Positions 846 to 46,243 of a stretch of DNA of 64,000 nt are shown here, piece after piece. The DNA lies in the IMG/VR virus record IMGVR_UViG_3300014205_000004, positions 1 to 64,000 of that record. One strand, 5' to 3'. Within the stretch, counting starts at the first letter, position 1, and every line of letters begins with the position of its first letter. The notes beneath the pieces were generated by a model, which ran no database searches, had not been told where the DNA came from, and was given only the letters and a program-made list of their open reading frames with translations. This stretch comes from a virus. Taxonomy: Duplodnaviria > Caudoviricetes. The translations under genes were made by a program, and so were the position numbers.

Positions 846-866
846 CACTCATCTCCTGACGGACAA

Positions 867-21735: not shown

Positions 21736-22998
21736 TCATGTGATTTTAATGACTCCCCTTTCCTCCAACCCCAGCATTCGTTCCTGAAGATGGTTCGGTA
21801 GCCGGATGATGGACTCAAGCGACACAAATATATCGACTTTGGGTTGCTCAGGTACGAGTTTTTCAGCAAAGAGCGAAGCCTCAGGGAACGTGCCCTGGGC
21901 CTGCCACCAGTCGACTACTGGCTTCACCTCGCTGTGGTCGACGAAGCAAGCAGTGACGCGCTGGTCATCGAAGCCAGGCACCTTGATGATGGCGTCGCCG
22001 CGGCCCAACAGTAGCTCTGCTCCGGACTGGTCCATGACAACTCGGCTGTCGATCGCTGTCGACACACGAAAGGCCGCTCGGGCAGGGAAGTTGGCCTTGA
22101 GTCGGCCGCTGATGATGTCGTGTGAAGGCCGTTGAGTAGCCAACACCATGTGAATGCCGGCCGCACGGCCAAGCTGACCGAGCCTGATGATCAGTTCCTG
22201 CGCCGCCGGAGAGTTACCGAAAAGGTCAGCCAGTTCGTCGATAATGAGTACCACGTACGGGAGAGTGTGGCCGCTCCGCAGCAAGTACTCGCTGATATTC
22301 CGATCTGAGTGCGTACTAAGCAACTCGTAGCGGTCACGCATCAGCTGCTCCAGGTCGGTGAGCATCTGGACGGTCTCGTCGGAGTCGTAGATGACCTTCC
22401 CGTAGCCAAGATGCGGGAGCCCCTCGAACACATTGAACTCGACACGCTTGGGGTCGACCAGGATGAGCTGGACTTCCGCCGGCGTGTACTGCGCGGCCAG
22501 GCTGGCGATGACCGCGTTGAGGAACACGCTCTTGCCCGAGCCCGTTGCACCAGCCACCAGAAGGTGAGGCATCGTGGCGAGCGAGTACCAGACAGGGGTG
22601 TTCGTGACGGACACGCCCGCGGGAATCATCAGCGGCTCGTTGGACCTGGGCGACGCGAGGAGGGACGCGAGACTGACGCGCCCTCTCTCCAGGTTGGGTA
22701 CCTCCAGGCAGATGAGCCCGGTCCGGTTGTCGTAGGTGATGCGCACTGTGGGGCTGCGAAGGTAGAACGCGATGTCGCGTTCGCGCGCCTTGAGCTTGCT
22801 GACTGCGGTGTACGTGTCTGGCTTGAAACGGACGACGGTCACTGTTGGACCATGCTCCATGCCGACGACGTCACCTGACACGCTGAAGTGGCCGAGGACT
22901 CGTTTGACTACCTCTTCAGAGATCTCTGAGGGAACGCCCCGAGTGCTAGGGCCAGAGCTCTGTACGAACGAGGCTATTGGTGAGGACAAAGCCGACAT
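21736..22998 (-). CDS. ftsK: FtsK/SpoIIIE DNA translocase, motor domains only
   Basis: GPTVT (alpha domain), PHLLVAGATGSGKS, DPKRVE, IIDELAD, GRAAGIH, ATQRPS, GAELLLGRGD. Confidence 0.92.
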   Translation of the reverse strand: MSALSSPIASFVQSSGPSTRGVPSEISEEVVKRVLGHFSVSGDVVGMEHGPTVTVVRFKPDTYTAVSKLKARERDIAFYLRSPTVRITYDNRTGLICLEVPNLERGRVSLASLLASPRSNEPLMIPAGVSVTNTPVWYSLATMPHLLVAGATGSGKSVFLNAVIASLAAQYTPAEVQLILVDPKRVEFNVFEGLPHLGYGKVIYDSDETVQMLTDLEQLMRDRYELLSTHSDRNISEYLLRSGHTLPYVVLIIDELADLFGNSPAAQELIIRLGQLGRAAGIHMVLATQRPSHDIISGRLKANFPARAAFRVSTAIDSRVVMDQSGAELLLGRGDAIIKVPGFDDQRVTACFVDHSEVKPVVDWWQAQGTFPEASLFAEKLVPEQPKVDIFVSLESIIRLPNHLQERMLGLEERGVIKIT

Positions 22999-23230
22999 GA
23001 GGGAACTCCTTGGTTAGGATCTCGATGGCCTTCTCAGGGCTGAATTCTCCGACCCGGTAGTGTGTGTAGACCGCACGCGAGATGTCGTGCCGCAACCACA
23101 CAGGCCCGTACCAGCAAAGGTCAGCCAGCCTGCTCCAGATGACTTCCCGCTGCCAATCGTCGATGTTCGGGGAGAAGGAGATGAGCAATTTGCGGTGCTC
23201 AGTCTCGAAGACGTCGATCTGCGCGGCGAT
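22946..23230 (-). CDS. Hypothetical protein, possible ATC start
   Basis: Frame is open from an ATC 1 nt after the upstream stop; GGAG 10 nt upstream. Confidence 0.4.
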   Translation of the reverse strand: MAAQIDVFETEHRKLLISFSPNIDDWQREVIWSRLADLCWYGPVWLRHDISRAVYTHYRVGEFSPEKAIEILTKEFPHVGFVLTNSLVRTELWP

Positions 23231-23231
23231 G

Positions 23232-23618
23232 CTAAACGTACTCCACAGGTGTTTCCATGGTTCGGGTCAGCGCGACGCGGAGGCCGATCGCATCGTAGAG
23301 GTCTCGCGCCGCGGCACGGAACTCGACGATGGATGTGGGATGCTCACGGTGGTGGGCGTCGATCTCGTCAATCACCTGGAACAGGTACGCTTCAGCTGAC
23401 CGTTCCGGGTTCTGCCGGATCCAGGTACGGATCTTGGCCCAGAACTCGATGACCTGGGGTGTGATGTCCCACTCAGCCAGGGTGACGGTACGCGCAGTTT
23501 CCGAGAAGAACGACTGCGCGTGCAGGTGGGCGACGAACTCAGCGAGGAAGTACTTGTGGACCTGCACGCGGAACCGCTTTAGGTTCCGGCAGTAGTCCCA
23601 GTCAGAGAGAATGTACAC
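23232..23618 (-). CDS. Hypothetical protein
   Basis: GTG after AGGAGG. Confidence 0.65.
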   Translation of the reverse strand: MYILSDWDYCRNLKRFRVQVHKYFLAEFVAHLHAQSFFSETARTVTLAEWDITPQVIEFWAKIRTWIRQNPERSAEAYLFQVIDEIDAHHREHPTSIVEFRAAARDLYDAIGLRVALTRTMETPVEYV

Positions 23619-23877
23619 GCTTGTCCTCCTGTTGAGGGTGCATCCGTTTGTGCTCCGCTATGGTTGCGACCAGGTCCAGGTCGCTGTCTGAAAGGGTGTA
23701 GTGCCTGAAGGCCAGGACGATGACTCCTGCGCTGTTGCGGTGAGTGCCTTCGTACAGTCCTTGTAGCCGGCGAGCGCACGAGCGGGCGTCCGGGCGTTTC
23801 TCGTCCTTCACGTGGTCAAGCACCTGCGCTACGCACAGGTCAATCAGTGTCTTGTGTGTCTGCATGCGCTTTGGCAC
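23602..23877 (-). CDS. Hypothetical protein
   Basis: Tiles with neighbouring genes. Confidence 0.55.
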   Translation of the reverse strand: MPKRMQTHKTLIDLCVAQVLDHVKDEKRPDARSCARRLQGLYEGTHRNSAGVIVLAFRHYTLSDSDLDLVATIAEHKRMHPQQEDKRVHSL

Positions 23878-24103
23878 CTCGTAGCAGGAAGATGCAGAGG
23901 GACGCTATCGCGACTCCCCACAGGACCCAGGCCGGCGCTGCCATAACCATGGCAACAGCCAGCCAGAGGATGATGAGAATGATAGCGGACCCCAGGCAGC
24001 CGCAGCACGCGAGGTTCTGGACAAAGACTCGGAGTAGCCCTAAGGCTACTCCGATGAGGATTCCTCCGAAGAACCAACGGAGGAGCTTCGGTTTGTCGTT
24101 CAG
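23840..24103 (-). CDS. Small membrane protein, probable CTG start
   Basis: Three hydrophobic helices; CTGA overlap with the upstream stop. Confidence 0.55.
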   Translation of the reverse strand: MNDKPKLLRWFFGGILIGVALGLLRVFVQNLACCGCLGSAIILIILWLAVAMVMAAPAWVLWGVAIASLCIFLLRGAKAHADTQDTD

Positions 24104-24381
24104 GAAGCGACGCGCTCCATCTTGATCGCCGCCTCGATCGTGAACCCCAGACCGCCCTGCTCGCAGAGGATGCTGCAGTAGGTGAACTTGAGTGCGCTCC
24201 CAGAGCGCTTCCACTCATACCTGACATGGCAGTTGCTGCACGTGCGCACGTTTGGACAGAGCGGCTGAATAGGCGAGGTTGGCACTGGTTTGCTCCTGTC
24301 TGACGTGGAATCTGAAGAGTCTCTGAAGTCCAGAGTACCGGTAACAGAGGTCAGTGGGCGCTCCGTGATGAGGTTTTGCAT
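24100..24381 (-). CDS. Zn-binding hypothetical protein
   Basis: CSNC ... YCSILCE. Confidence 0.6.
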   Translation of the reverse strand: MQNLITERPLTSVTGTLDFRDSSDSTSDRSKPVPTSPIQPLCPNVRTCSNCHVRYEWKRSGSALKFTYCSILCEQGGLGFTIEAAIKMERVAS

Positions 24382-24451
24382 AATGTTCGTTCGACTACCT
24401 TTCGAGTCACCGGTGGACCAGAGTGTCGTCTGCAGCACGTCACTGGCGTGT

Positions 24452-24474
24452 ACGGGTGTTGTAGAGTGTTCTAG
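24452..24474 (+). repeat. 23-bp exact direct repeat, copy 1
   Basis: ACGGGTGTTGTAGAGTGTTCTAG, identical to 59538-59560. Confidence 0.9.
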
Positions 24475-25192
24475 AGCAGGTCTGGCTCATGCTACGCCGG
24501 GGTCAGGAAGTAGCCTTTGGCACCTGCGCGGTCGAGCAGCCGTCCGACCTCCTGGTATGAGGTGAACTCCACCGGCCGGACGATGACTGCCTGCCCTGGC
24601 CCACTGAAGTATGGATCCATCAGAACGTCCACGAGATGCTCGCCGCAGGCCGGTTCGCCTCGAAGTCCCGCACCATTGTTGATTGTCGCTACGGGTGCGG
24701 AGTCGCAGAACGCTTTGATACATGTCAAAGGACACCTCCTTCACTGACGATGGCTGCGATGAGTTGCCGGGCCCGCTCCTGGTACTCCAGGAATGCGTCC
24801 GACTGAGACGCCCCGCTTTCCGCGCAGCGCCGGCAGCGACCTTTGTGGTCCACGTCCTCGACAGGGTCGCTGTCCTGGCCGCAGTCCGTGCAGTAGTCCA
24901 GTTCACCGCACGGGATGAAGGCGACGTGTGTTGCGAGGCTCTCCACGAAAGAGAGGACGGCTTCGCGGGTCGTTGGCTTAGGCATGGCACGCACGCGCAG
25001 GTCGCGCGCGGTCTCCCTCATCGTCATCACGGATGGTTCCCCACGCAGAAAGGAGCGGATCATCTCCGCCCGTTCCAGGCAGGCGCTACGGGATATGCCG
25101 TCACCGGCCGCACCGTCATCGAAGCGTTCAGCGAGGTTGTTGAGGACTGCGACTGCTTGGTCCAGGGTTACGTGATTCACTGGCATTCTCCT

Positions 25193-25852
25193 TTACGAGA
25201 GCTGGTTGAGTGCTTTCTTCCATCGCGCGCCGTGTGCGACGAACCCGATGGTGATGCTGTGTTCCTTGAGCTTGTCGGTCTTGCTGCAAAGCAAGCAGGA
25301 AGCGCACTGGACGCCGCGGGTCTGCTCCGGGCACGGCATAACTTTGATGCCGTCGCGCTCGAAGACCTTGGGCCCGTCCGGAAACTCAGGAACAACGATG
25401 GCGGTTGCGAAGCCAGCTGCTCGGGCCTGCTTCACATCCTCTGCGGATTCACACGACGCGAGGACGTTCGCCCCACGCCAGTCGTCCACGTCGACGTCCC
25501 GCCAGGCGTGGGTGTACGTCCAGGCCGGTGAAGGGTAGTCAGCCATGGCTTGGCCGACGATGCGCGCCGCTTCGGGTGTCGCCGAGTCGCCGACGACGTG
25601 GACGCGAAGAGGGAGGTTGCCTTTGAGTGCGCGGATCTTGTTCGCCTCTTCCTGGGCGATAGCCACTGGGTCGGTCGTCTCGCTCTTGTTGACGCGACGC
25701 GTAGCGAATGCCATGTTTCCGACTTCCGCGTAGCAACCGTTGTCGCGGAACCGGCACGAGGTCGGGCAGGATGCCTGCGACGCGTACGTCGCGGCCACCT
25801 TACCGAGCTTCGAGTTGTTTGACCTCGCGGCCACACTGACCGCGCCAGCGAT
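25193..25852 (-). CDS. Cys-rich phage protein (gp88/DUF7227-like), GTG 25834 or ATC 25852 start
   Basis: SNNSKLG..SCP..C....CYA, LRVHVVGD, WTYTH, CP....CASCLLC, GFVAHG. Confidence 0.6.
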   Translation of the reverse strand: MAGAVSVAARSNNSKLGKVAATYASQASCPTSCRFRDNGCYAEVGNMAFATRRVNKSETTDPVAIAQEEANKIRALKGNLPLRVHVVGDSATPEAARIVGQAMADYPSPAWTYTHAWRDVDVDDWRGANVLASCESAEDVKQARAAGFATAIVVPEFPDGPKVFERDGIKVMPCPEQTRGVQCASCLLCSKTDKLKEHSITIGFVAHGARWKKALNQLS

Positions 25853-26206
25853 CTAGTTGAGACCCCAGGCTTCACGGTCGTCGGCCCTGTCCTGCTCGTC
25901 GTCCCCGTCGTAGAACTCTTCGAAGGACGCACAGAGGCTAAGGTCCGCGCGCATCAACGCGACGGACATGTCGTCGCACTCCACCACCCAGTCGTTGATG
26001 CGGTTGTGGAGGCGGTTGCGGTCGTTAACAGAGAGGGAGTCCAACGTCTGGTTGGAGAGGTTCTCGATGAGCACGCCTTCAAGCGTGTCGACCAGTTCTT
26101 TGACCTGGGTTGTCGTCTTGCCGTTGGCTTCGCACCAACGTTCGAAGGCGATGGATTCGAGCGCCGCCTTTTCGTAAGGGCGTTCGAGGTAGGACTGATG
26201 GGTTAT
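25853..26206 (-). CDS. Acidic hypothetical protein, ATA start
   Basis: AAGGAG-6 nt-ATA extends the tracked ORF by 44 codons and fills the intergenic gap. Confidence 0.65.
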   Translation of the reverse strand: MTHQSYLERPYEKAALESIAFERWCEANGKTTTQVKELVDTLEGVLIENLSNQTLDSLSVNDRNRLHNRINDWVVECDDMSVALMRADLSLCASFEEFYDGDDEQDRADDREAWGLN

Positions 26207-26694
26207 GAGTTACTCCTTGTTGGATGGTCGCGGTTTGGTGCCAAGGGGTGCGCCGACCTGTTCGAGCATGCTGCGGGACATCATCGAGATGATGTCCCGG
26301 CTGGCACAGTCGTAGGCGAGGTTCTCATCGACCTTCGTGACGACGTACTCGTAGTCAACGTCGTAGCCGAAATCGATGAGCGCACGATGGATAGACGGGC
26401 TGACGCGGTCGACCAGGAATTTGAGATTGCCGAGTGGAGTGGTTTCTGTGCGTATCTCACCCAAGGGAGGCACGCTCCCCGCAGTTTCCACACTCGCGAC
26501 CGGGGACGACGTAAAAGTCCTTGCACGAGGGACAGATGATGCAGCGATCGCAGTGTTGTGGTTTCACCATGAAGGTGAACAGATCACCAGGCTTGAAACC
26601 TGGAAGTTCATTTATTGGCAGCTCAGCCACCTTGTACCTCCTGTGTGTGCAGCGAAAATTTCGCGCGGCCAAATTTTGGTCCTAAAATAACGTC

Positions 26695-28901: not shown

Positions 28902-29555
28902 TCACAGCACCGCCTTCAAGCGCCCGGCATCCACTGCCAGCAAGTCCAGTGCAACACGACCTAGCGCCAGGCGCTCATCAAGCGTGCCCTCAGTCACTGC
29001 CAGGACGAACTGGATGCATGCTGACTCGGACAAGCTGGGCACGGGCTCCTTGGACCCCTGGTAGGGCGCGAAGAAGCGGGCGTACAGCGTGTTCGCGAGT
29101 TCGCGGTCTTTGGGCTCGATCAGTGCTCCGAATAGCCGGAACTGGCGGAATGTGTCCTCTTCCAGTTCCTTGGCCTCCGCCACATACTCAGCGATGCTGC
29201 GAGGGACGTCATCCAGGAGCTCTTGAACGACCACCTCGAACTCAGCGAAGCGCACTCGCTCACTTCGGTCCTCGAATGTCTCCACGGTGAGGTTCTGGTA
29301 GTTGCCGTAGTACGGTGCGCACCAGCCGCCGCTGCGGCCTTCGGACGAAGCTCCGGCGTAGCCGAGTTCCTCGGCCGCGGTGTGGATCTGGCTCCAGAAT
29401 TCCTCGGCCGCGGCGTCCCAGGCGTAGGAGCGCTGGCTTTCGGACGCATCGCCGTACGCTGCCTCAACCGCGGCTTGGTCGAGGTCCCAGAGCTTGACAC
29501 GCACAGCTGCGTGCCCGGTTTCCCCGTGAAAGGGGATGGTTTGGGTGTCGGTCAG
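28902..29555 (-). CDS. Acidic hypothetical protein, probable CTG start
   Basis: AAGGAG-6 nt-CTG; contains EGRSGGW motif. Confidence 0.6.
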   Translation of the reverse strand: MTDTQTIPFHGETGHAAVRVKLWDLDQAAVEAAYGDASESQRSYAWDAAAEEFWSQIHTAAEELGYAGASSEGRSGGWCAPYYGNYQNLTVETFEDRSERVRFAEFEVVVQELLDDVPRSIAEYVAEAKELEEDTFRQFRLFGALIEPKDRELANTLYARFFAPYQGSKEPVPSLSESACIQFVLAVTEGTLDERLALGRVALDLLAVDAGRLKAVL

Positions 29556-29606
29556 CCTGTTCTCCTTCTCATGTTGCAAAGTTACCTTGACAGCCAGCAA
29601 GCAATG

Positions 29607-30083
29607 TCAGACAGCAACCCAGCTGGGGGCGATGAGGTAGGTGCTGCAGGTGCTGCATTCGTCACTGAACAACATGCAGCAGTCTCCGCAGAACGTGCCT
29701 GGCCCGTTGTTGATTGGGTAGTGGACACCTTCGTCGTCGAGACACCGGTTGCAGGTGTCGCAGTGCGGGATGTCGCACCCCTCGGATGGGTGCGTTGCGG
29801 CAACTTCCGCGCAGTAGTGGTCATGGAGGTGCTGCATGCACACGAAGTGGCCGCAGTCTTGCGTTATCCCGTCGTCAGAGCATTCCGGGCAACGTTGTTC
29901 CTGCCGCTCTTCGTCCGTGGGCGTAGCTTCGAGTGCAGCGTAGGCGCTCTCGTACTTCGCACCAAAGTCGGCGATGTCTTCGTCGGTGTATTCTCCTGGA
30001 AAGCGAGTGGAGTACTCCTCAAAGTCGTCTCGCCGGTCCATGAGGCATTGTTTGAGGAAAGCTTTGTCAACCTCGTTTATCAG
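29607..30083 (-). CDS. Multi-Zn-finger hypothetical protein, probable CTG start
   Basis: AAGGAG-7 nt-CTGA overlap; several CxxC motifs. Confidence 0.6.
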   Translation of the reverse strand: MINEVDKAFLKQCLMDRRDDFEEYSTRFPGEYTDEDIADFGAKYESAYAALEATPTDEERQEQRCPECSDDGITQDCGHFVCMQHLHDHYCAEVAATHPSEGCDIPHCDTCNRCLDDEGVHYPINNGPGTFCGDCCMLFSDECSTCSTYLIAPSWVAV

Positions 30084-31030
30084 TGCGGTTCTCCTTGCGA
30101 GAAGCAGGCTCTCCGCGGAGCAAGCTTCACCCAGACGTGGTGGAACCCGTCCTGGTGCCCGTTGATGACAGCCACGACATGGATCCCGTGCGGGTCAGCG
30201 GCGCTGATGAAGTCCTGGTCGGCCACATGCAGTGCGGCCTGCCAGTCGCTGTCGAAGCGCTCGCACATGTCGCAGCGCTCGATACCGATGTAGCCGCTGT
30301 AGTGGTACTGGTCTGTGAACCACCAGCCTGCGCACGGGTCAGGCCAGAAGCCACAGTGCTCCGGGTTCTTGTAGTCCTTGTAGGCGGGAGAGGCTTCGTA
30401 GAGCCTCATCCACCCCGCCGCGAGGGCCTCTTGAACCGTCGCAACCTTAGCTCTCACTTTTGGCTCCCTCTTCCATTCCGCGTTGGATTTATCCCACTCG
30501 ATTTCGGACCGGATGTACCCCCTGAGGATTTCGTCGATCGGGTGGTCTCCACTGAAGTACATCCCGGCCCACCCGCCCTCCTCAATACCGAGCCGCTGCT
30601 GGATGACGAGGCAGGCGGCGTTTAGTGCTTCATCGGCGAGGTCTTCGATTTCCTGGTCGGAAAGCTCAGGCATCAGTCACCTCACGCCGTCTGGGGTCTT
30701 CGTACTTCAGGCGCTCCCAGAGCACCCTGGCCGCGGCGCGCGGGATTTCGTCCCACACCCTGCTCCAGTGAGGTTCAGCCATCTCAGCTCCTCTGAGCCC
30801 AGCATTAGTCAACACATCAGCGAGAAGCACGTTGGCATCGCAGTTGTCATGCATGACCGTGGGGGCTATCACGGCTAGGGCGAGCCAATCCTCAAGGGCA
30901 GCGGGCCGGTGCAGACGAAAGGGCCAGCCCCCGAACGGCTCGCGACCGTTGATCGGGTCCCAGTGCTTCTCAAGCAACATCAGGTTTACCCAGGCCCTGA
31001 CAGTCCGCGTAGCCAGCAATCTGTAGTCCA

Positions 31031-32374
31031 TTAGGCACCTCCTGCTGCAGCGTATGCGTAGTCCACCATCAGGTGGGCTGCGTTCGCTTGAACGAGCGCC
31101 CTGGCTACCGGCGGGCAGACGCTGTTGCCGGCCATGCGCACCTGGGCGGTCTTGGTCATCGGCTTCCCGTTGACGAGTGGCTCGATGACGTAGTCCCTGG
31201 GGAACCCCTGGGCTGCGTAGAGTTCTTTTGGTTCGAGCATCCGCATCCCGATATCCGAGATGGCGTACTGCTCGCCGTGAACGGTGACGAGAGCGATGCG
31301 CGCTTTCGAGGTGACGACGTGCATCGGTTCTCGCATGTTCTGCGCCTGTCCCCCACCGCTGTAGTAGTGCGTGAGAAAGGCGTAGACGAGTCCGAGCTTC
31401 TTGCCGCCCGCGGTCACGGTCGGCATCGGCTGCTCCAGGTCGGCACCAATCGCGGTCCCGTAGAACTTGGTGAGGAACGCACTGACGAGCGCGTGCTTCA
31501 CCCCTCCGCCCATGGCAGTGCCGAGGGGTTTGAATAGTCCAGGCACGCGTGGAGCCTGCCCAGGACGTTCCCCCCAGCTGGTCTGGATGAGGGTCGGGAC
31601 GCTGATCTGGTCGTTGCCGACGATGAAGGGGTCAGGGTCGTTGATGACGTAGCGGTAGGTGCCGTAGGCAATCCGCTTCAGGGTCGCGTCGGAGAGCGGC
31701 TTGGGTCGGCCGAAGATGCTCCTGGTTGGAATGGAGAAGTCGATGCATTCGTGTGCCGGCCGCTCAGGCAGCCGTCCTGGACCGTGCGTAGGCTCCGGCC
31801 AGATGATCGGCTTCCCATCGCGCCTGGCGATGATGAAGAGTCGCTTCCGAATGGTTGGCGCGCCGAAGTAGCTGGCTCGCAGCTCTTTCCACTGGACGCG
31901 GTAACCGAGCTCTTGAAGCGAAGCAACCCATTCGTCGAAGGTCTCACCCTGACGGAGCTTGTCAGGCTTGTTGTTCGCGTCGAGCGGGCCCCACGTACGG
32001 AACTCCTCGACGTTCTCGACCATGATGATTTCGGGATGCACTTCCCGCGCCCAATTCACCACCACCCAGGCGAGGTCGCGAATCTTCTTCTCGACCGGCC
32101 TGCCGCCCTTGGCCTTGCTGAAGTGCTTGCAGTCCGGGGAGAACCAAGCCAGACCTACGGGGAGGCCGCTGGTCACTTCCTTCGGGTCAACGCTCCAGAT
32201 GTCCTGCACGTAGTGCGTAGCGTCCGGATGGTTGGCCGTGTGCATGATGATGGCTTCGGGGTCGTGGTTGATGGCGATATCGACCTGGCGGTTGAGGGCC
32301 ATCTCGATACCGGTGGATGCTCCACCGCCGCCTGCAAAGTTGTCGGCGATGAGCTTCTGGGTGGTCAGGGTCAG
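31031..32374 (-). CDS. DNA (cytosine-5) methyltransferase, CTG start
   Basis: Motif I DNFAGGGG, motif IV SPDCKHFS, ENV, RKRLF, GNSV; AGGAGG-7 nt-CTG directly after an in-frame TAG. Confidence 0.92.
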   Translation of the reverse strand: MTLTTQKLIADNFAGGGGASTGIEMALNRQVDIAINHDPEAIIMHTANHPDATHYVQDIWSVDPKEVTSGLPVGLAWFSPDCKHFSKAKGGRPVEKKIRDLAWVVVNWAREVHPEIIMVENVEEFRTWGPLDANNKPDKLRQGETFDEWVASLQELGYRVQWKELRASYFGAPTIRKRLFIIARRDGKPIIWPEPTHGPGRLPERPAHECIDFSIPTRSIFGRPKPLSDATLKRIAYGTYRYVINDPDPFIVGNDQISVPTLIQTSWGERPGQAPRVPGLFKPLGTAMGGGVKHALVSAFLTKFYGTAIGADLEQPMPTVTAGGKKLGLVYAFLTHYYSGGGQAQNMREPMHVVTSKARIALVTVHGEQYAISDIGMRMLEPKELYAAQGFPRDYVIEPLVNGKPMTKTAQVRMAGNSVCPPVARALVQANAAHLMVDYAYAAAGGA

Positions 32375-33191
32375 CTAGTTTCCTCCTGCAAAAAGTTGGT
32401 GGCCTCTGAGACGGCCTCTTCTTTTGCGCCCTCCAGGTCGTCGCGAGCAATCGCCAAGGCTTGGAAAAGCAGCAAGTTGTTCTCCAGTTTTGCCTCGATG
32501 GAGGCGCACACGTAGCGCAGCGTGGTGGGTCTCAGGACCTTCAGATCCTTTCCGTCGGCAGAGGCATAAAGGATCTTCACGTTCCCGTACGCATCTGGCG
32601 AGACTCTCCACGAACCATCGAATGACTGTTCGAAGAATGTGTAATCATCCTCCACTTCCTTGACTTTGTTCTTCAGCTGTTTGTACGTTTCAAGACTGTT
32701 CACTTTTGGCGTTACTCCTTTAAGCGGCTTCGGCTTCGGGGTAGGGGTAGCAGGCGCAACAGAACCGTTGCGTGCTCTTCCCTTTCAGCAAGTACACACG
32801 CCCGCCCATCGCGATGCGGCTGGAGCACGCAGAGCAATGTCGGTCGGTGGTGGTCTTGGCGCGAATCAGCCGGACACCCGTTGGCCAAAATGTCTGAGCC
32901 TTCCGACTGCTTATCGTGCAGCGACGGCTTGGTCCGGTTATGAGGTTGTGCTCGACTTTGCCTTGGCTCAGTCGGCGACGGATTGCGTCGTGACCGTCTT
33001 TTTCCGTCGTCGGAAATTCAGGAAATTCTCTCTCGAAGAGGGCACCGTACTCCCTGGGCGTTCGGCCGGGCCACATGTCGACCAGCGTCAGGGCGATTTC
33101 CAGGAGGGCGTTGATGGGCGCGCTGTCTTCAGCGTCATGAGAGCTTTCAGGATCACTGTTACGAGAGTTGCGACTCATGTTTGTCTTCTAG

Positions 33192-33485
33192 CTACTCACA
33201 GATGCAGATGGTTTTGTGGACGAGACTGCCGGCTCGTCGTAGTTGTTCGATGCAGAGGCGACCAGCAGCCATCGCCTCGTCTTTGGTTGGAAGGTCAGCG
33301 ACGCACTCGACGCCACCGATCTTGAGATGGAGGTACACGGACCAGAACTCGGCCTCTCCTGCGCCGCAGCGTTCGATGTGCTTGCGTTCGTTGCCTTCGT
33401 AGCGGACGGCGGAGACTTCTACTCCGTCGTAGTGGTCCAGAGCGAGGCTGGGTGCGCCCAGCCAAGCGTTTCGCAGTGGGGTTAT
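33192..33485 (-). CDS. Hypothetical protein, possible ATA start
   Basis: ATAA overlap with the upstream stop; contains FWSVYLH...GG..CVAD motif. Confidence 0.5.
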   Translation of the reverse strand: MTPLRNAWLGAPSLALDHYDGVEVSAVRYEGNERKHIERCGAGEAEFWSVYLHLKIGGVECVADLPTKDEAMAAGRLCIEQLRRAGSLVHKTICICE

Positions 33486-34147
33486 TCGACCCAACCCTTC
33501 GCTTTCGCAACGGCTTCGATCATGGCGAGACGGGCGCGGCATTCAGCCCCTACGATCTCCCCATGAGGATGTTCGCCATCCCAGTGTGCGTGGGCTTCGG
33601 CCAGTGTGAAGCGGCGGCATCCAGCCTGTACCAGCAATCCGCCATCGGGCGAATACGTGGCGTACCAGAGATAGCCCCGCGTGTCCGTCCCGGCAAGGAT
33701 GAGGTTCGCACCCCAGAGGTCCGCATTCCGGAGGTCCGCGCCCCGGAGGTTCGCGTCCCGGAGGTTCGCGCCCCAGAGGTCCGCGCCCCGGAGGTTCGCG
33801 TCCCGGAGGTCCGCACCCCGGAGGTTCGCTTCCCGGAGGTCCGCGCCCCGGAGGTCCGCGCCCCGGAGGTTCGCGTCCCGGAGGTTCGCGCCCCAGAGGT
33901 CCGCGCCCCGGAGGTTCGCGTCCCGGAGGTCCGCACCCCGGAGGTTCGCACCCCAGAGGTCCGCATCCCGGAGGTCCGCATCCCAGAGGTCCGCACCCCA
34001 GAGGTCCGCGTCCCGGAGGTCCGCGCCCCGGAGGTCCGCCCGGCTTTCACCGGCGGCCTCCGCGACTGTGGTGGCGGTTTCCGAGTGGAACGCGACCGTC
34101 CCGTCCCGTCGATAGATTGTAATTCCTTCGCTAGTCATTTGCCTCAC
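33482..34147 (-). CDS. Pentapeptide-repeat protein
   Basis: About 22 A(D/N)L(R/W)(G/D) repeats followed by a C-terminal AGCR.FT domain. Confidence 0.92.
   Translation of the reverse strand: MRQMTSEGITIYRRDGTVAFHSETATTVAEAAGESRADLRGADLRDADLWGADLWDADLRDADLWGANLRGADLRDANLRGADLWGANLRDANLRGADLRGADLREANLRGADLRDANLRGADLWGANLRDANLRGADLRNADLWGANLILAGTDTRGYLWYATYSPDGGLLVQAGCRRFTLAEAHAHWDGEHPHGEIVGAECRARLAMIEAVAKAKGWVE
33701..34040 (-). repeat. 15-bp tandem repeat encoding the pentapeptides
   Basis: GAGGT(C/T)CGCNNCCC(G/A) units. Confidence 0.9.
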
Positions 34148-35655: not shown

Positions 35656-35685
35656 AGCTTACATTGCCGTAGACGACTCTGTCAA
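35656..35685 (-). promoter_or_regulatory. Sigma70-type internal promoter
   Basis: TTGACA-18 nt-TAAGCT upstream of the AAGGAG RBS of ORF 35383-35619. Confidence 0.6.
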
Positions 35686-35921
35686 CGCAAGTACGTGAGT
35701 TGCTCGCCACTGACGCTGTCGTAGTTGATCTGACGCCCGCGAGTGACGCCATCGATGGCGCGCTGAAGCCTCGCAATGTCCGACACTGGTAAGCCTGCGT
35801 GACTCATTTGTCGGACGGCGAGCTTCGCCTCCCACACGAGGCGGAGGACGTCTTGCTTTGTTGATTGGGTCTCGGGGGACGGGGTTCGCTTTCGAAAGCG
35901 CTGTGAAGGGCTAGCCGCCGT
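35682..35921 (-). CDS. 79-aa ORF missing from the track, probable ACG start
   Basis: GGAG-7 nt-ACG; the frame fills an otherwise empty gap. Confidence 0.45.
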   Translation of the reverse strand, partial: TAASPSQRFRKRTPSPETQSTKQDVLRLVWEAKLAVRQMSHAGLPVSDIARLQRAIDGVTRGRQINYDSVSGEQLTYLR

Positions 35922-37369
35922 TGCGCGGCTCCGGCAGGTGATGCATGTTGGGGGCGAACTTAGCCTTCAACGCGTCGGACTCGTACCAATCCCCGTAAAC
36001 ACCGGGGTGCTCCAGGAACGTCGGGTGTTCGCCGGCTAGCTTTCCGAGCACGTCAAAGAGTGCGTTAGCCCATCCACGCGTGTATTCGCTGTAGTAAGCA
36101 GCAGCTTCAGCGCGCCTGGCGAGTTCCCGCAGCAAGGCCCACTGGTCTTCTTCACCTTCCGGCGAAGGGTCCAACCAGACGCAGTGGTCCTTGCACTTCC
36201 TGTGGGCTTTCTCGTCGTGCTTGGCTCTCATTCGCCGTACTCAATGTCCGCTCGGGAGAGAGCCGGCTCACCAATACTGACGCGCCTGTGCCAGTCCTCG
36301 ACGCTGTTGTAGAGGCAGGCTTGACCGTAGCCGATGACGATGACGCCCTCACGCTCGACGGTGTAGCTGTCCCAGGGAGTTCTCTCTTCCGTCAGGTATG
36401 CGACGTGGAGAATGGTGATGATCTCACCACCTCCTCCAACGTCATCCGTACATTTGAGGATCCTCACTCGACTTCCTTCATCTTCTCGTTCGACCTCGCT
36501 AGGCGAGGTCGATTCCTACGCTCTCTAATAGTTCTGCGAAGATAGCGATGTCCTGTTCTTCCCAAATCGGATCCGCATTGGTTTTGGCAACGCGGAAAGT
36601 GAAGCCGTCAGGGCCGGTCAGTTCCCAAACCGAGATGTGGTTCTCGCCTTCACCACCTTCGGTGAGGAAACGAGCGGCGGAGATGCCAAGCGCCTTGGCT
36701 TCAGCCTCGATGCCAGCAGAGTTGAGTTCCTCGATTGGGGTGAGGTTCTCACTGTCCTGCTCCAGCGCCTCAAAGCACGCCGAGACGCGCCCACTCCGAG
36801 TGTGGTACATCTTGTGGCCCATCTCGATTCGGGCCGGGTTGCCGGTCGCCGTACGCGGCTGGCCGTCCAGCGAGCGGCACTGCGGGCAGGATGCCGCTGC
36901 GGTGTGATATGTGGAGTTCGTTGCCATTGTTCTGCCTTTCAGTCTGATTTGGGTCTTGCGGTATGGGTTCACTCGACCTCCTCCCACGTCCACGAGTACA
37001 TGCCGAGGGCCCACACTTCCTTCGGGCCTTCAGGGGTGCTGATGGTCAGTGCCTCGTAGTGAATGTCCTGAAGACCTTCAGCCTCTTCTACAGACCCCTC
37101 CTCGTAGTCACCCCTTTCGCAGATAACACCAGGGTAAGGGTAGTCAGACCACATGATGTCCACCCATTCAGGTGCCACATGCTGCTCTGCTCGGAGCTTG
37201 TTGTGCAGTTCGACGTAGCGATTGGCTTCGTCGCGCTCGAAGAGCGGACAGGCCCACCCGTTCCAGAGCTTTCCGTCCGTCCAGCCTTCGAACGAGACGT
37301 CGTCTGGTAGCCACTCCGCGGTGAAGCGGGTCTTCCGGAATTGCTTAGGCATCATCTGGCTTGGCTCCA

Positions 37370-38068
37370 TCAGTCCTTCCTGAAGACGTAGATACCGTAT
37401 GCGTTGTCGTCGTACGGGTGGGCTTCGACGGACGAGTAGTCACCGCCCCGGAACAGATCCTTCGCCCAAGCGTCGACCGCGTGGCTCATGTAGCCTGCGA
37501 GCGGGTGGCGTACCTTCTTATGGCCGTAGCCGTTTGGGTCTTCCATCTCGTCCGGGTCGCCGTAGCAGTCTTCATACAAGTGCGCGCCGAAGGCTTCCTC
37601 GTCGTCCCACTCGCCCTGGTACTCGTCGGTGAACGATTCGAGGAAGGAAAGGTCTGGGCTGTCGTCGTAGCAAGCGTCGCTCCAGTTGTACCACGCTGCG
37701 AAGGCTGCGCCGTGCTCCTCAAGCTTCTCGGCGATGGCTGCGACCTTGGCGAAGCTTTCGTTCTCACCCAGGCCCATGTGGGCGAAGCCGTCGTAGTCGT
37801 GGATGGCCCACTCCTCGGCGCTCTCCACCTGGCCGGAGCCGTTGCAGTGGCCGCAATCTACGCGGCCACCCATGTCGCTTGAGAAGCTTCCGTCGCCGAA
37901 GCACTCAGGGCATTCAACCGTGGTGTTCGGGAACGTGGAATCACGGAGCAGTGCCGCGACTTCTTCCTGGATGTGGTCCTCACCGAGTGTCGCGTCGATC
38001 CACTTACCGTGGTGGACGCCGTTGTTGTAGCTTGCCAGGCAAGCTACATAGATCCGGTAATCAGAAAT
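37370..38068 (-). CDS. ardA: ArdA antirestriction protein with inserted Zn finger, ATT start
   Basis: RIYVACLASYNNGVHHGKWIDA, EEWAIHDYDGF, YQGEWDDEEAF; highly acidic. Confidence 0.88.
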   Translation of the reverse strand: MSDYRIYVACLASYNNGVHHGKWIDATLGEDHIQEEVAALLRDSTFPNTTVECPECFGDGSFSSDMGGRVDCGHCNGSGQVESAEEWAIHDYDGFAHMGLGENESFAKVAAIAEKLEEHGAAFAAWYNWSDACYDDSPDLSFLESFTDEYQGEWDDEEAFGAHLYEDCYGDPDEMEDPNGYGHKKVRHPLAGYMSHAVDAWAKDLFRGGDYSSVEAHPYDDNAYGIYVFRKD

Positions 38069-38083
38069 GCGCGTACTCCTTCT

Positions 38084-38392
38084 CTACCAGTCGTAAGTTG
38101 GGATCGGCTCGTGGAAAGCCCCGTCCCGGTCGAAGCGGAGGATGTCGACGTCCTCGACCATTGCGGCTTCGATGATGTCGATGAATGTGGTTGAGAATCC
38201 GAAGCCCAGGGCATCGGTTCTCTCCTCGGGCCCCCACTCGCTAGGGACCACGACGAAGAATCCCTCCGGGTAGATCATCACCCGGAATGGGTCTTCCGGT
38301 TGATAGCGGGCGAGTAGTCGTTCGTCCCCGGTCGTGAGATGCCCGGTGGACAAATCCGCGTAGTTGTAGATGTACTGGTTGTCGAGGTTCAC
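38084..38392 (-). CDS. Hypothetical protein (DUF5983-like)
   Basis: DLSTGHLT ... YPEGFFV ... LRFDRDG ... YDW. Confidence 0.55.
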   Translation of the reverse strand: MNLDNQYIYNYADLSTGHLTTGDERLLARYQPEDPFRVMIYPEGFFVVVPSEWGPEERTDALGFGFSTTFIDIIEAAMVEDVDILRFDRDGAFHEPIPTYDW

Positions 38393-38605
38393 GTCATCAC
38401 CAAGAAGGTCTGACCGCCTTCGCCGGACCAAATGCCAGCGCGTTCGTGGCCGGCTATCCGGGCTGGTGGACAGAACTCGTAGAACGTGACCTTGACGCAA
38501 GTGCCAGGGGCTTGCATCCCAAGGTCCACAAGGCGGGCACGGACGAGTGCGACCGCCTCAACCAAGTCGTTGGCCGATACCATGCCGAAGTCGCCGTCGG
38601 CTTCT

Positions 38606-41126: not shown

Positions 41127-42485
41127 TTAATCAACGCGACCTCCCATGGTCCAGCCCCGGACAGTCCGGGTTCCGCTGTTGGCGTCGAAGGAGCGGAAGC
41201 GAGCGCGCTCGGTCTCCTGCGTCGGTTCAGTGGCGTAGGGCACCGTGTTCTTGACGATGTAGTGCCACGTCTTCCCGTCGCCGAGCTTGCGCCGGGCGTG
41301 GTCACGCTCGCGGCCTTCGGGGTCGTGGTACATCGTCCCGCGAGCGTATGTCCCGCGAGGTGCGAACTTCGCGAGGGTGTTGTTGTTGAGAGGCAGCGCC
41401 ATGTCGGAGACGAAGCTCTCGGTTGCGGTGTGGTTGGTCCCGAGAAGGGATACCCGCTTGCTGCGGGTACGGATGTCCTTGGTGTTGATGCCGGCCATAG
41501 GGATGGCGAAGATGTCCCCCTGGCGCACAACTTCGAGGCCTTCGGCTTCGGCGACCTTGACTTCATGCGGCTTGAGGGATTCGTACGCCTCTTCGATGGT
41601 GTTCGCGTCCGTGTCGGGCAGCTGGCAGAGGAAGTAGAGCGGGCGGCGTTCTTGCTCGTCGAAGGAGCTGAGGAACTTGGCCTTCGCGAAGCGGTCGGGA
41701 ACCCAGGTCAGTTCCTCACTCATCTTGGTGCGCTCGTTGTACCGTTCTTCCCACGTCTTCGAGTCATCGTTGTTCAGGGCGGCGAGGCGTCGCTGGTAGT
41801 CAGCCATGTCGGGGTGCGTGTTGTGGCCGGGCTCAATCAGGTACTCGGCCTCGAACAGCGATCCACCCATCCAGTGCCGCCAACGCTTGTACGCCCAGCG
41901 ACCGTTGTGCCAGAAGAGCGTATGGTCGCCCAGCTTACGGTAGGCGACTTCGTACTCGTCGGCGGGGGTTACTGTTCCATCGTCATTCCACTCGAACAGC
42001 CAGCCGTCCTTGCTGTACGGGTACTCGATACCGTCCTGGAGCTTGCGGCGGAGAGTCATCGTGACTGTCCGAACGTCAGCCAGCTCCTCGTTGGAGACGT
42101 AGACGATCTCCTCCTCGGACCGGTCACTTTCGACCTGCAGCGGCTTGATTCTCTCGTGCGGGATGCCTGCCGCGTCCAGGGCGCTGAAGGGGAGGAGGAT
42201 GGACTTGATGCCGCTCCTCGTGATAGCGCCCCGAACAAACCCCTGATGGGAAGTCGTCGTGCTCGAATAGCGGTCGCTGTTGACGAGGAAGAACCCGTCC
42301 TTCCGCGTCCCTACGAGTTGGGCCAGGGGGAAGTGCGATCCGTAACTGAACACGGTGTCGACGTCCTGGCTTTGCCGCGAGCTGCCGCCGATCTTTGCGT
42401 TGACTGAGGCCGGCCGAAGGAACCGTGGCTTCTCCTTGCCGACTTCCTGGATGAATCGTTCGATAACCTGTTGTGCGCTTGTCAT
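41127..42485 (-). CDS. Large hypothetical protein
   Basis: 452-aa ORF with AGGAG RBS; FSYGSHFPLA, YSSTT.SHQ and RQGDIF motifs. Confidence 0.75.
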   Translation of the reverse strand: MTSAQQVIERFIQEVGKEKPRFLRPASVNAKIGGSSRQSQDVDTVFSYGSHFPLAQLVGTRKDGFFLVNSDRYSSTTTSHQGFVRGAITRSGIKSILLPFSALDAAGIPHERIKPLQVESDRSEEEIVYVSNEELADVRTVTMTLRRKLQDGIEYPYSKDGWLFEWNDDGTVTPADEYEVAYRKLGDHTLFWHNGRWAYKRWRHWMGGSLFEAEYLIEPGHNTHPDMADYQRRLAALNNDDSKTWEERYNERTKMSEELTWVPDRFAKAKFLSSFDEQERRPLYFLCQLPDTDANTIEEAYESLKPHEVKVAEAEGLEVVRQGDIFAIPMAGINTKDIRTRSKRVSLLGTNHTATESFVSDMALPLNNNTLAKFAPRGTYARGTMYHDPEGRERDHARRKLGDGKTWHYIVKNTVPYATEPTQETERARFRSFDANSGTRTVRGWTMGGRVD

Positions 42486-45400
42486 AGTGTCTCCTCTGTG
42501 TGTGTTGGGTGTAGCTGTCGAGTGTTTGACGGACTAGATGTGCTCGATACCGTTGGCGTCGTCGCATTGCAGGCAGAGCGCTTGCCTGTTCGTGAACTTG
42601 TGGCACGGGCAGCTTTGCTCGCCCTGGCGGTTGATGTCGGTGTTGTCTCCGAAGACCCCGGTGTATGCGAACCCGACACCGAAGAGCTTGGCCATGGTGC
42701 TGATGAACTCGATGAAGGCCGCGTCATCGTCGACGTTTGCCGGCGTGGTCATGTACGCGACGACGGCCCTGCGTATGTCGCTGGTGAGCACTTTGCGCCC
42801 ATTGACGTGAACGTTGTCACCGACGATGCGCTTAGTCATAGGCGTCGTTCCAGTCAGTGATTTCGATGGTTGCGCTACAGTGCGGGCAGACAGTGAAGTT
42901 CCCCGAGTAAGGTGCTACGCGCTGGACGTTCATCTTCTCCTCAGGGTCCTTGTGCATGTGCGAGAGATGGTCGCGGTCGTAGGTCAGTTCGATGACCTTG
43001 CCCTCGTCAGTCCATCGCGGTACGGAGTTGAGCAGGTTGTACCAGCCACACCTCGGGCAGTTGTGTTCGTAGGCCGCAACAACCAGTTCTGTGGTGAAGA
43101 CTTTCGGGGTGGTGTTAGGCATTGTTGTCCTCCTGAGGGCGAATCGACTTGTACCAGTCCTCCCAGGCCATGAGGGTGTAGTGTTTGATGCTGTCTTCCT
43201 CGATGCCGTAGTTGATGGCGTCCTCTTCGCAGGCTTCGGTGATAGTGACGATGTGCGGCCATTCGAAGCCGAGCATGTAGTTGATGTTGTTGGAGATCCG
43301 TTCCATCGCCTCGTCTTCCGACATGGCGACGGTGTTCATGGTGATCGTGATGCTGTAGTGCTTGGGCAGGTCGGGCTTTGCTGGCATTACTGGCGCTCCG
43401 TTTCCCAGAGAAGGCGGTCGTAAATGTCCTGCCCACCGAGAAAGTGGCGCAGTTCCTTCGCTTGCTCGGCTATGGTGTGGTAGATCCGTTCGGCGGTCCG
43501 GGAATCGTCGTCGTACCCGTATTCAGCGCACCAGTCCGCGAAGTTCCGGGAGTTCTCATATCCGCTCGCATCGGACGCGAGGCAATCCAGCACATCGGCC
43601 GCGGTAGGGGGCTTTTTGTGGCCGTTCCCCTGGGAAAACCAGACCGTGATGTAGGGCCCCATCTTTTCCCATTGTCCGTTGCACTGAATACTCTCCCGAG
43701 GGTAGACCCCCTCCATCTGGTGCTTTGTGCCCCGTAGCGGCCCTTCCGTGCGCTGTAGGCACGCGGCGCATATCTCATCGGCGGAATTGCGCCGCCACTT
43801 GCGCAGCGTGCACTTGAAGTGCCGCATTGAGTCGGACATGAAGCCATCGGGCCGCATGGGGAACGGCTCCGCCTTCATGTCGATCCCTATGCTTTCAATG
43901 AAATTCGCGATGGTTGGCGCGGGTATCTTGCGGTCACCGCCGCAAGTCTGGCACGGCCCGTAGGCTGTCCCCTTGTTGAGTGTCGTTCCCTGGAAGGCAT
44001 AAACGCCGTCCTCGCAGTCTGGACAAGGGATTGTTTCAGGCATCGAACACCTCCCTAACTGTGTCGGCTATGGCTCCGATGAAGCCCCTGACTGCCTGCA
44101 CCAAGCAGACAACAGCGCCCGCTAATAGGGCGCAGATAATTACAGGCACCATACGTATGCCATACCTCTGCGTTGTGTTAATTCTCGTGTTGTGCGACTG
44201 TTGTGCCTTTGTTAAATCAGGGGTTTACCCATAGCTCCTGTTGTTTTTCAATGTTGTAACAACACGGCTTTTCGAATCTGAAAGCCCCTGAAGGCGTGTT
44301 GTTTTACGCGATGTGTAGCTCGCGAGCCTTTTGGTACCACTTTGGTGGGTTGCCGTGAGCCCACGACACGCTCTCGTACTGCCTCGTCGGCCCGTCCAGC
44401 GCTATCACGCGAAGGTAGGTTTTCCAGCGGTCGCAGAAGTAGAGCCACCCGCCCTCGTGAGGGCCCAGCACTATGCAGTCATCGCACAGGTCTTCGAGCT
44501 TCTGAGGCCACGCCAGGTAGGCGTAGTACGCGCGGACCTCGTCGTTATCCCAGAAGTTCTCGACGGTGTACTTCTGGCCTTCTTCGGTGAGTGACCCACC
44601 CAGGAAGGCGTGACAGCTGCCACACACGTGCGGACTGTCTGTCTCGCACCAGGAGAAGCACGCCGACATGTCGTTGGTGTTGATGCTGCCGTAGCGTGCT
44701 ACTGCGCAATCCTCGCAGAGGACGCTAGCGGCCTCGTCTACGTAAGCGATTGGTTCAAGACTCATGCTGCGCCCTCCGATGTGCGTTCGACCTTTCCGTC
44801 CTTGTCCACGGTCAACCCGAGCCGGTGAGCACTTGCAACGGCGTCTTCGCGGCGCTCGAAGAAGTGAGGCTCACCGGCCAGGGAGATCGTGCTGGCCGTA
44901 GCAATGGTGTTGCCGAAGATGAACACCCATGCTTGGTTGACTGGCAGGTAGACGAGATGCATCAAGCGGACACGGCCTTTGCCCGGTACCGTTTGACCGC
45001 GGCATCGATGTCGTGAGTCAGGTATCCGTAGTCGTCACCTACGACTTCGTATTCGCTGTCACCGATGGCTTCAGCAACAGCCTCAGCCAGGCCGGACGTC
45101 GCCGGGTCACCGAGGAAACCACCGCACGAGTCGACCCACTCGCCGTCCTCGTCCTCGACGGCGAACCAGAACCCGTAGCCGTTCGCCCAGTCGGTGTATG
45201 CCTGGCAGAAGTTCTCAGCGTCCTTGAAGCGAGCCTCGTAGGTCTTCGCCCCGAGGTTCGCAACCGGCTGCGCCCACACCAGGAGGCCAGCGTTGAGCGT
45301 CCCGTCCCACTGGAACTCGACGCCGGCAGGTACGTGGCCGTTCTTGACCATCCAGATGCAGCCACTGTGTTCGTAGTAGCTGAGGAGGAAGGCGGTGCCC

Positions 45401-45952
45401 TTGGTCAGCTTGCGGCGCAACCCGATGGACATATCTCCGAAGCTGCCCTCGAAGCCGAGGTCACTGGGGTGCTTGTAGCTGCCGTGCCGGGTACTGAACG
45501 AGTAGAGCTTCCACCCACCCCAATCGCTCGGGCATTCGAGTTCTTCGTCCGGCTGAACGCTAACCCTGAGCAACTGCGGCCTCTTTTCGTGCACGGCTCC
45601 ATGCGTAGGTGCGCTCCTTGAGCACCCGCCAGTGCTCGGCCATGGCTTCCGCTACTGGTTCATGAAGGTAGGGCAGGAAGTACTCGGTCGAGCGCCACGT
45701 GGTTGGGTCGATGGTTTCGGGGGTGGCACCATCGAGGTAGCCGACGAGGTGCTCGGCCAGCTCCCGCATCCTGAAGACCATGCACTGCTTGTAGGCAGTG
45801 TCATCGTCGTTGCGGTCCCAAAGAACCGCGATGAACGGTTCAGCCTGCCCGAAGGAGGTATCAGTCAGCCGGCCCATCGCGAGGACTGACCCATCACCAC
45901 CAGAACCGTTGCGGTGATAGGTAGCGGTTACGTCTTCGACAATCATGTGTTC

Positions 45953-46243
45953 TTACCCTTTCGTGAAGAGGACTACTTGGCCGAGATCGAAGTGCGCCTC
46001 GTACACCTCGCAGGTTTTGAGGGCGTCGAGCGCGACGAGCAGGGTCTGACCGACCATCTGGCTCACAGTCAGGTCGCAGTCGGGTGGTGTGTTGGACTGG
46101 ATGATGGCGCGCAGATCCGCCAGGGCGTCGTTGGACACCTGGTGGTCTTTGCTGATTGCGATGTGGGTCGTCGCCTTGCCTTCACGGATGTGTTGCTCGA
46201 CGACTTGAAGGACGTATGGGTGCGTCCGTGCCCCGACGCTCAG
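45953..46243 (-). CDS. Hypothetical protein, probable CTG start
   Basis: CTGA overlap with AAGG 7 nt upstream; extends the tracked ORF by 35 codons. Confidence 0.5.
   Translation of the reverse strand: MSVGARTHPYVLQVVEQHIREGKATTHIAISKDHQVSNDALADLRAIIQSNTPPDCDLTVSQMVGQTLLVALDALKTCEVYEAHFDLGQVVLFTKG

Follow-up and report, generated by a model that had tools for sequence, protein, structure and literature searches.

The initiator fMet-tRNA can read CUG, AUU, AUC and AUA with one mismatch, and initiation at such near-cognate codons is known but rare. In Escherichia coli reporters these four codons are the strongest of the non-canonical starts, at about 1–3% of AUG, and initiation factor IF3 screens against them (bioRxiv 10.1101/063800). 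Two AUU-initiated genes are confirmed for E. coli, namely infC, which encodes IF3 and is autoregulated by it, and pcnB; in both a near-cognate start behind a Shine-Dalgarno (SD) sequence limits translation, and the start of infC follows thrS in the order stop, 3 nt, AUU (PMC3592434). A second described arrangement is termination-reinitiation coupling, which takes place at ATGA and TGATG overlaps between neighbouring genes (PMC6728339, PMC12548453). The present analysis concerns near-cognate start codons in a phage of the Caudoviricetes, IMG/VR virus record IMGVR_UViG_3300014205_000004, of which the first 64,000 nucleotides form the window; the whole record comprises 124,496 bp, carries direct terminal repeats, is rated 100% complete and has a G+C content of about 60%.

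Several genes of this phage, among them an ArdA anti-restriction gene and a predicted C5 cytosine DNA methyltransferase gene, probably have real near-cognate starts, which would be anchored by SD sequences, assisted by coupling to the upstream gene and used for a low, steady output of accessory proteins. As in infC and pcnB, a near-cognate start stands behind an SD, and the ATA at 26206 shares the stop, 3 nt, start layout of infC; unlike in E. coli, the phage has several such genes in one small genome, their starts are mostly CTG and their products are accessory rather than housekeeping. IF3 autoregulation is a feature of infC, and the likeness of the phage genes to it is one of start codon, SD and layout. 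With termination-reinitiation coupling the phage shares 14 ATGA and 11 GTGA junctions, whereas the start half of the overlap at the weak starts is CTG (CTGA), which falls outside the described overlap types.

Results

Near-cognate starts required by homology

The 11 single-base variants of ATG that a preliminary description, made from the sequence alone, had proposed as starts are all present on the minus strand: CTG at 24103, 29555, 30083, 32374 and 46243; ATA at 26206 and 33485; ATT at 38068; ATC at 23230 and 25852; and ACG at 35921. Their surroundings were also found as described, with AAGGAG or AGGAGG 6–7 nt before 26206, 29555, 30083, 32374 and 38068; CTGA overlaps at 24103, 29555, 30083, 32374 and 46243; and, for 25852, 32374 and 23230, a start that adjoins the upstream stop or is separated from it by 1 nt. 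The wider claim, that real genes start at these codons, stands for a core set; two of the 11 fail it, and some five are unproven. For each codon the upstream in-frame stop and all nearby in-frame ATG, GTG and TTG codons were listed, and the scores of the extensions were compared with those of coding windows and off-frame windows. A home-made gene finder of the three-periodic Markov type, with this genome as its training set, called 144 genes. The coordinates of all candidates are collected in Table 1. The comparison with the N-termini of homologues, which had been suggested as a check, proves that two genes, those starting at ATT 38068 and CTG 32374, require a near-cognate start.

The frame of the ArdA gene is preceded by an in-frame TAG five codons upstream of the ATT (38086–38084), at a distance of 15 nt from that stop to the ATT, and its first ATG lies 65 codons downstream (37873). 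The Pfam family ArdA (PF07275) matches the translation at 98.1 bits, where the gathering cut-off is 27, and residues 6–215 correspond to positions 1–150 of the 155 in the profile. The 80 homologues from IMG/VR exhibit a conserved RIYVACLASYNNG motif near the N-terminus, with a Met 1–10 residues ahead of it in many of them; in two, this Met falls exactly on the ATT in the alignment. The phage gene resembles ArdA proteins of PF07275 in its full-length domain match and its conserved N-terminal motif, and differs from them in having ATT for ATG and a Cys-rich, zinc-ribbon-like insertion. One groundwater contig and one wastewater contig cover the ATT, both with zero differences. The insertion itself occupies residues ~35–86 (window 37800–37970) and displays weak Pfam matches of the zinc-ribbon and DnaJ-CXXCXGXG-like kinds.

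The methyltransferase gene has a TAG directly upstream of its CTG in frame, and the CTG overlaps the TGA of the upstream gene as CTGA. Its translation matches the Pfam family DNA_methylase (PF00145) at 107.5 bits, where the cut-off is 22, residues 10–189 corresponding to profile positions 4–166, and the motifs SPDCKHFS, ENV and GNSV are present, so that by sequence the protein is a C5 cytosine DNA methyltransferase with predicted activity. The S-adenosylmethionine (SAM)-binding motif I, FAGGGG, occupies residues 13–18, and the first Met is residue 25 (ATG 32302), past that motif. All 15 of the homologues examined, from phage pAN and 14 bacterial loci, have a canonical start 8–30 codons before motif I. 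The frame upstream of the phage gene scores as non-coding, and the actual upstream gene occupies another frame and ends at the TGA of the CTGA; the methyltransferase is not a fusion, since the same-frame sequence ahead of it is non-coding. Reading of the TAG as an amino acid was considered and rejected, as the frame before it is non-coding and TAG ends 38 genes.

Enrichment of Shine-Dalgarno sequences and clustering

The genome-wide count of SD-anchored starts against chance controls, likewise proposed beforehand, found an enrichment. AGGAG or GGAGG stands 5–9 nt upstream of 7 of the 164 in-frame CTG, ATT, ATC, ATA and ACG codons that precede the first canonical start of a called gene, where chance would give 1.1–1.7 (binomial P 2e-4 to 2e-3); the strictest local control raises the expectation to ~2.4, with P ~0.01 by hand estimate. 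Strong SDs ahead of such codons are 3–6 times commoner than chance, and five of the seven SD-led codons lie at least 14 codons before any canonical start. The longer forms AAGGAG, AGGAGG or GAGGAG are found 6–8 nt before 26206, 29555, 30083, 32374, 38068 and 98213. An A follows the start codon in 6 of the 7 candidates; the share is 44% for canonical SD-led starts, which the candidates resemble more than internal codons, where it is 24% (P 0.001). Very acidic proteins (isoelectric point 4.2–4.5), resembling DNA mimics, make up five of the seven candidate products, as they do 28% of all proteins of the phage.

A screen of every gene for coding signal ahead of its first canonical codon flagged 26209, 32374, 38083, 23266 and 46354, together with a few genes that have only a purine-rich SD before a normal start, and the gene at 98213 fell just under the threshold. 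Among the individual extensions, those of 26206 (44 codons), 23230 (14 codons) and 29555 (17 codons) score as coding; those of 30083, 24103 and 46243 score weaker; and the stretch after ACG 35921 and the stretch from ATG 33542 to ATA 33485 score as non-coding.

Counted strictly, genes with such a start number 4 among the 39 called in 22.9–46.4 kb and 1 among the 105 in the rest of the genome (Fisher P 0.02), and with two more candidates added the Fisher P is 0.002. These starts are not strictly confined to the early gene array in which the preliminary description placed them, because CTG 98213 belongs to the late tail module.

Most candidate starts lie within 0–15 nt of the upstream stop, often as CTGA. 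CTGA is the geometry at 32374 and 30083, and may be that of 24103 and 46243 too; the gap is 3 nt at 26206 and 0 nt at 98213. A census of stop-start junctions in the genome counted ATGA 14 times, GTGA 11 times, TGATG 6 times and TAATG 6 times, and on this ground stop-start coupling geometry is the norm in this genome; CTGA is a one-base variant of the ATGA and GTGA overlaps that dominate it.

Candidate starts in genes of the array and beyond it

Near-cognate starts are probable at ATA 26206, CTG 30083 and CTG 98213. The grade of the first two rests on an SD, on coding potential and on the lack of any canonical codon for 14–44 codons. At 26206 the upstream stop TAA is followed after 3 nt by the ATA, AAGGAG (26213–26218) stands 6 nt before it, and the first canonical codon is GTG 26074, 44 codons downstream; the coding score of this 44-codon extension is reached by only 0.3% of off-frame windows. 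The AlphaFold2 model of the 26206 protein has low confidence. CTG 30083 overlaps the upstream TGA and has AAGGAG (30091–30096) 7 nt before it, its first ATG (30041) is without an SD, and its 14-codon extension has a weakly positive coding score. The alternative to this CTG is the next codon, ATA 30080, which is equally non-canonical (TGATA instead of TGATG). Single-sequence AlphaFold2 modelling places a helix at residues 4–27 of the 30083 protein, with a predicted local distance difference test score of 81–92, which spans the ATG at codon 15. In the late gene, GAGGAG is followed after 6 nt by CTG 98213, directly after a TAA; its homologues share only a central tail-fibre motif and leave the N-terminus uncovered.

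Starts are possible at CTG 29555, ATC 23230, CTG 24103, CTG 46243, ATC 25852 and ATC 36422. CTG 29555 has GAAGGAG 6 nt before it, and its canonical alternatives are TTG 29579 (8 codons before), TTG 29600 (15 codons before) and GTG 29504; the SD energy is −9.3 for the CTG against −3.9 for TTG 29579, and the public gene calls use the TTG codons. One groundwater contig covers the site with zero differences, and a search with the 29555 protein in the ESM Atlas gave no usable match. At window 29552–29572 there is a six-codon mini open reading frame (ORF), ATG AGA AGG AGA ACA GGC TGA, which contains the SD of CTG 29555 and whose stop overlaps that codon as CTGA, perhaps by chance or perhaps as a small device for coupling.

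None of the proteins of 26206, 29555 and 30083 had a homologue in IMG/VR scans, and protein searches with the same three returned only the products of this genome; the protein-cluster members from another assembly are identical save for how the first residue is written.

The SD of ATC 36422, GGAGGAGGTG (36428–36437), is among the strongest scored and stands 5–8 nt before the codon. Its energy is −13.0 against −6.1 for the canonical GTG, and the 15 intervening codons score as non-coding.

Weaker and unsupported candidates

ATC 23230 has GGAG 10 nt upstream and its first canonical codon, TTG 23188, 14 codons downstream, and the coding score of its extension is reached by 0.2% of off-frame windows. 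In a wastewater strain ATC 23218 reads GTC, and among the differences listed none falls at 23228–23230. CTG 24103 has GGAG 11 nt upstream and its first ATG 51 codons downstream; the coding frame switches at ~24110, and the extension has an intermediate coding score. At 46243 the CTG is one candidate start among others, and the exact codon is uncertain. For the DUF7227 gene the Pfam match begins at residue 6, homologues align from residues 4–5, and Val5 is invariant in an alignment of three sequences; neither ATC 25852 nor GTG 25834 has an SD, and the GTG fits almost equally well.

As starts, ATA 33485 and ACG 35921 are unsupported, the former because the canonical TTG 33494 suffices and makes it unneeded, the latter because its 28-codon extension looks non-coding. 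At window 45594–45620, an in-frame ACG (45606) has AAGGAG 7 nt ahead of it, at 19 nt from the canonical GTG 45594, which has only GGAG, at 2 nt; ACG 45606 may be a further weak start, or the SD may be a long-spaced one.

Table 1. Candidate near-cognate starts, their Shine-Dalgarno sequences and same-frame ORF chains (window positions unless marked genome).
Feature	Position	Strand	Start codon and remarks
ArdA anti-restriction gene	37370..38068	-	ATT 38068; Pfam and homologues
Shine-Dalgarno AAGGAG	38076..38081	-	7 nt before ATT 38068
C5 cytosine DNA methyltransferase gene (predicted)	31031..32374	-	CTG 32374; Pfam and homologues
Shine-Dalgarno AGGAGG	32382..32387	-	7 nt before CTG 32374
Acidic 117-aa gene	25853..26206	-	probable ATA 26206; no known relatives
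Acidic Cys-rich 158-aa gene	29607..30083	-	probable CTG 30083; no known relatives
Tail-fibre-like late gene	genome, beyond the window		probable CTG 98213; absent from the preliminary description
Acidic 217-aa gene	28902..29555	-	possible CTG 29555; no known relatives
64-aa gene	36228..36422	-	possible ATC 36422; alternative GTG 36467; absent from the preliminary description
94-aa gene	22946..23230	-	possible ATC 23230, 1 nt after upstream TAG
87-aa membrane protein gene	23840..24103	-	possible CTG 24103, CTGA overlap with upstream gene
96-aa gene	45953..46243	-	possible CTG 46243; coding signal 17 codons before first canonical GTG 46138
DUF7227 gene	25193..25852	-	possible ATC 25852, adjoining a TAG; alternative GTG 25834, 6 codons downstream
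Gene with proposed ATA 33485	33192..33494	-	unsupported; canonical TTG 33494 three codons upstream
Stretch with proposed ACG 35921	35682..35921	-	unsupported; 28-codon extension up to GTG 35837 with a non-coding score
Same-frame ORF chains	25193-26563; 28902-30194; 37370-38557; genome 93740-98818		

Sequence sources and other features of the genome

The source of the record is a landfill metagenome; groundwater and wastewater runs contain near-identical DNA, and there are wastewater strains of 90–95% identity. Those runs that bear the label RNA-Seq probably consist of DNA and served only as contigs. The source run's own contigs match the sequence throughout, and identity across samples is claimed solely for the zero-difference contigs at 29017–29936, 38056–38421 and 37939–38368. 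Assembly error, which had been named as a possible explanation, is excluded for ATT 38068 and CTG 29555, both found unchanged in contigs of other samples. The GTG start (23616–23618) of the gene at 23232–23618 reads ATG in wastewater strains, through a plus-strand C>T change at 23618; near-identical phages have here exchanged one start codon for another. Wastewater strains also have an extra TGTGTGTGTG at window 42496, a difference in short-repeat length between strains.

The Markov gene calls lie on the minus strand to ~52 kb, on the plus strand in 53–101 kb and on the minus strand again to the end of the genome. Chains of same-frame ORFs split by one stop (TAA, TAG or TGA) were observed at ~17 of ~140 junctions. 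No tRNA was found by ARAGORN, and the 64-kb window matched no Rfam family; in genome ~64300–65500 ARAGORN found no tRNA and no Rfam model matched at E<=1. A phage initiator or suppressor tRNA was considered as a candidate and set aside, none being found by ARAGORN or Rfam, and a sub-threshold match to ribosomal protein S21 at 37886–37957, antisense to ArdA, was dismissed as spurious.

The small-gene array is adjoined by a gene for a phage ATPase of the FtsK/SpoIIIE family (window 21736–22998; Pfam 158 bits). A RecA-like gene is found at the genome ends (window 3–848; genome 124064–124495), a part of which matches again at 124355–124486; this repeated match is consistent with a direct terminal repeat that cuts through the gene, the first in-frame canonical codon of which is GTG 848. 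The protein encoded at genome 98833–101382 exhibits LAGLIDADG, Hint and intein-splicing Pfam matches, by which an intein with a homing endonuclease is predicted inside a late gene. The phage collection contained no near genome of this phage and no match to a 404-aa late protein, perhaps the capsid protein. In the search for a host, the RecA-like protein had no match in the genome contigs, and a scan of genome contigs with the methyltransferase matched unrelated lineages.

Discussion

The genes at ATT 38068 and CTG 32374 are intact, their conserved N-termini precede any canonical start, and SDs are present. From this it seems probable that the near-cognate codons are used as they stand: the strong SD, 5–8 nt ahead, would hold the ribosome at the weak codon, ribosomes ending the upstream gene would be delivered straight to the start site, and SD and stop-start coupling together would make the weak codon usable. 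Coupling at the weak starts is suggested by their stop-start geometry. The likely result would be a steady, low translation of ArdA, the cytosine methyltransferase and several very acidic proteins without relatives. Actual initiation at these codons, its low yield and a purpose in the low yield are inferred. Three explanations had been offered at the outset, namely a regulatory layer that responds to relaxed initiation fidelity, the damping of toxic genes and a host lineage with permissive initiation; of these, damping of expression best fits the known behaviour of such codons. A report on reinitiation and non-canonical codons (PMC4648390) concerns eukaryotic oocytes and was not used.

Four points weigh against the view that these are weak starts kept for low output. 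ArdA is normally required fast and early, which is an odd fit with a weak start. Homology cannot confirm the starts at 26206, 29555 and 30083, because these genes are without relatives. The coding-potential scores come from a home-made model trained on the very genome that it scores. The sequences from other samples represent near-identical strains, which exclude error and are not evidence of long-term conservation.

A host trait or neutral drift, in which the host tolerates near-cognate starts behind strong SDs and purposeless changes of ATG to CTG or ATT persist, would account for the fact that most of the affected genes are accessory or without known relatives and that every one of them keeps a strong SD, which could compensate; changes of start codon between strains do occur, as from GTG to ATG at 23618. 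It is nevertheless unlikely, as only ~1 of ~100 genes outside the array is affected and the phage overall prefers canonical starts.

Distinctly unlikely is a regulatory layer that senses initiation fidelity, in which the weak-start genes would rise when IF3 is limiting or is blocked by a phage protein, with a timing like that of infC. The weak-start group would then read initiation fidelity, either as the IF3:ribosome ratio or through a phage protein acting on IF3 or the 30S subunit, and counter-defence proteins, anti-restriction ones included, would be made only in a particular infection window or host state. The near-cognate starts are indeed the codons that IF3 discriminates against, IF3 overexpression also reduces re-initiation at coupled genes (PMC2268962), and the candidates cluster in 22.9–46.4 kb (Fisher P 0.002–0.02 over both counts). 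Yet homologue searches of the phage found that it encodes no homologue of IF3, IF1, S1, S21 or deformylase and no tRNA, the candidate at 98213 is a late gene, the clustering is modest and varies with the candidates counted, and nothing observed here demonstrates that the phage relaxes the checking of start codons.

Use of downstream canonical starts, or decay of the genes, with the pairings of SD and near-cognate codon being coincidental, is very unlikely for the group. Gene callers do give products of 73, 144 and 225–232 aa from canonical codons, and this explanation is adequate for 33485 and 35921 and perhaps for 25852 and 29555. However, ArdA would lose ~60 residues with its most conserved motif and the methyltransferase its SAM-binding motif I, both genes are otherwise intact, so that truncation and decay are excluded for the two, the SD enrichment and the coding potential argue against coincidence, and ATT 38068 and CTG 29555 are identical in other samples.

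Read-through of stop codons or fusion, by which the ORFs would be made as C-terminal extensions without initiation, can hardly be right, for although in-frame single-stop junctions exist at 38068 (TAG), 26206 (TAA), 29555 (TGA) and 98213 (TAA), all three stop codons would need to be read through, dozens of genes terminate at each of TAG, TAA and TGA, searches detected no suppressor tRNA (ARAGORN; Rfam in the window and in 64.3–65.5 kb), the methyltransferase gene and the gene at 30083 are out of frame with their upstream genes, a strong SD stands at start-like spacing at every junction, and the ArdA homologues are stand-alone proteins.

Gene callers miss near-cognate starts, and the public calls for this phage truncate or shift the genes, to 73 instead of 117 aa at 26206 and to 144 instead of 158 aa at 30083; if the first ATG were taken as the start of ArdA or the methyltransferase, essential motifs would be missing. 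Given such truncated and shifted calls, pipelines limited to ATG, GTG and TTG miscall anti-defence genes. With two weak starts proven by homology and several that are probable, this one genome of 124 kb far exceeds the two cases confirmed for the whole of E. coli. This suggests that phages set protein levels by the choice of start codon, in combination with strong SDs and stop-start coupling, and should these starts prove responsive to IF3 or a phage factor, they would represent a new layer of infection timing.

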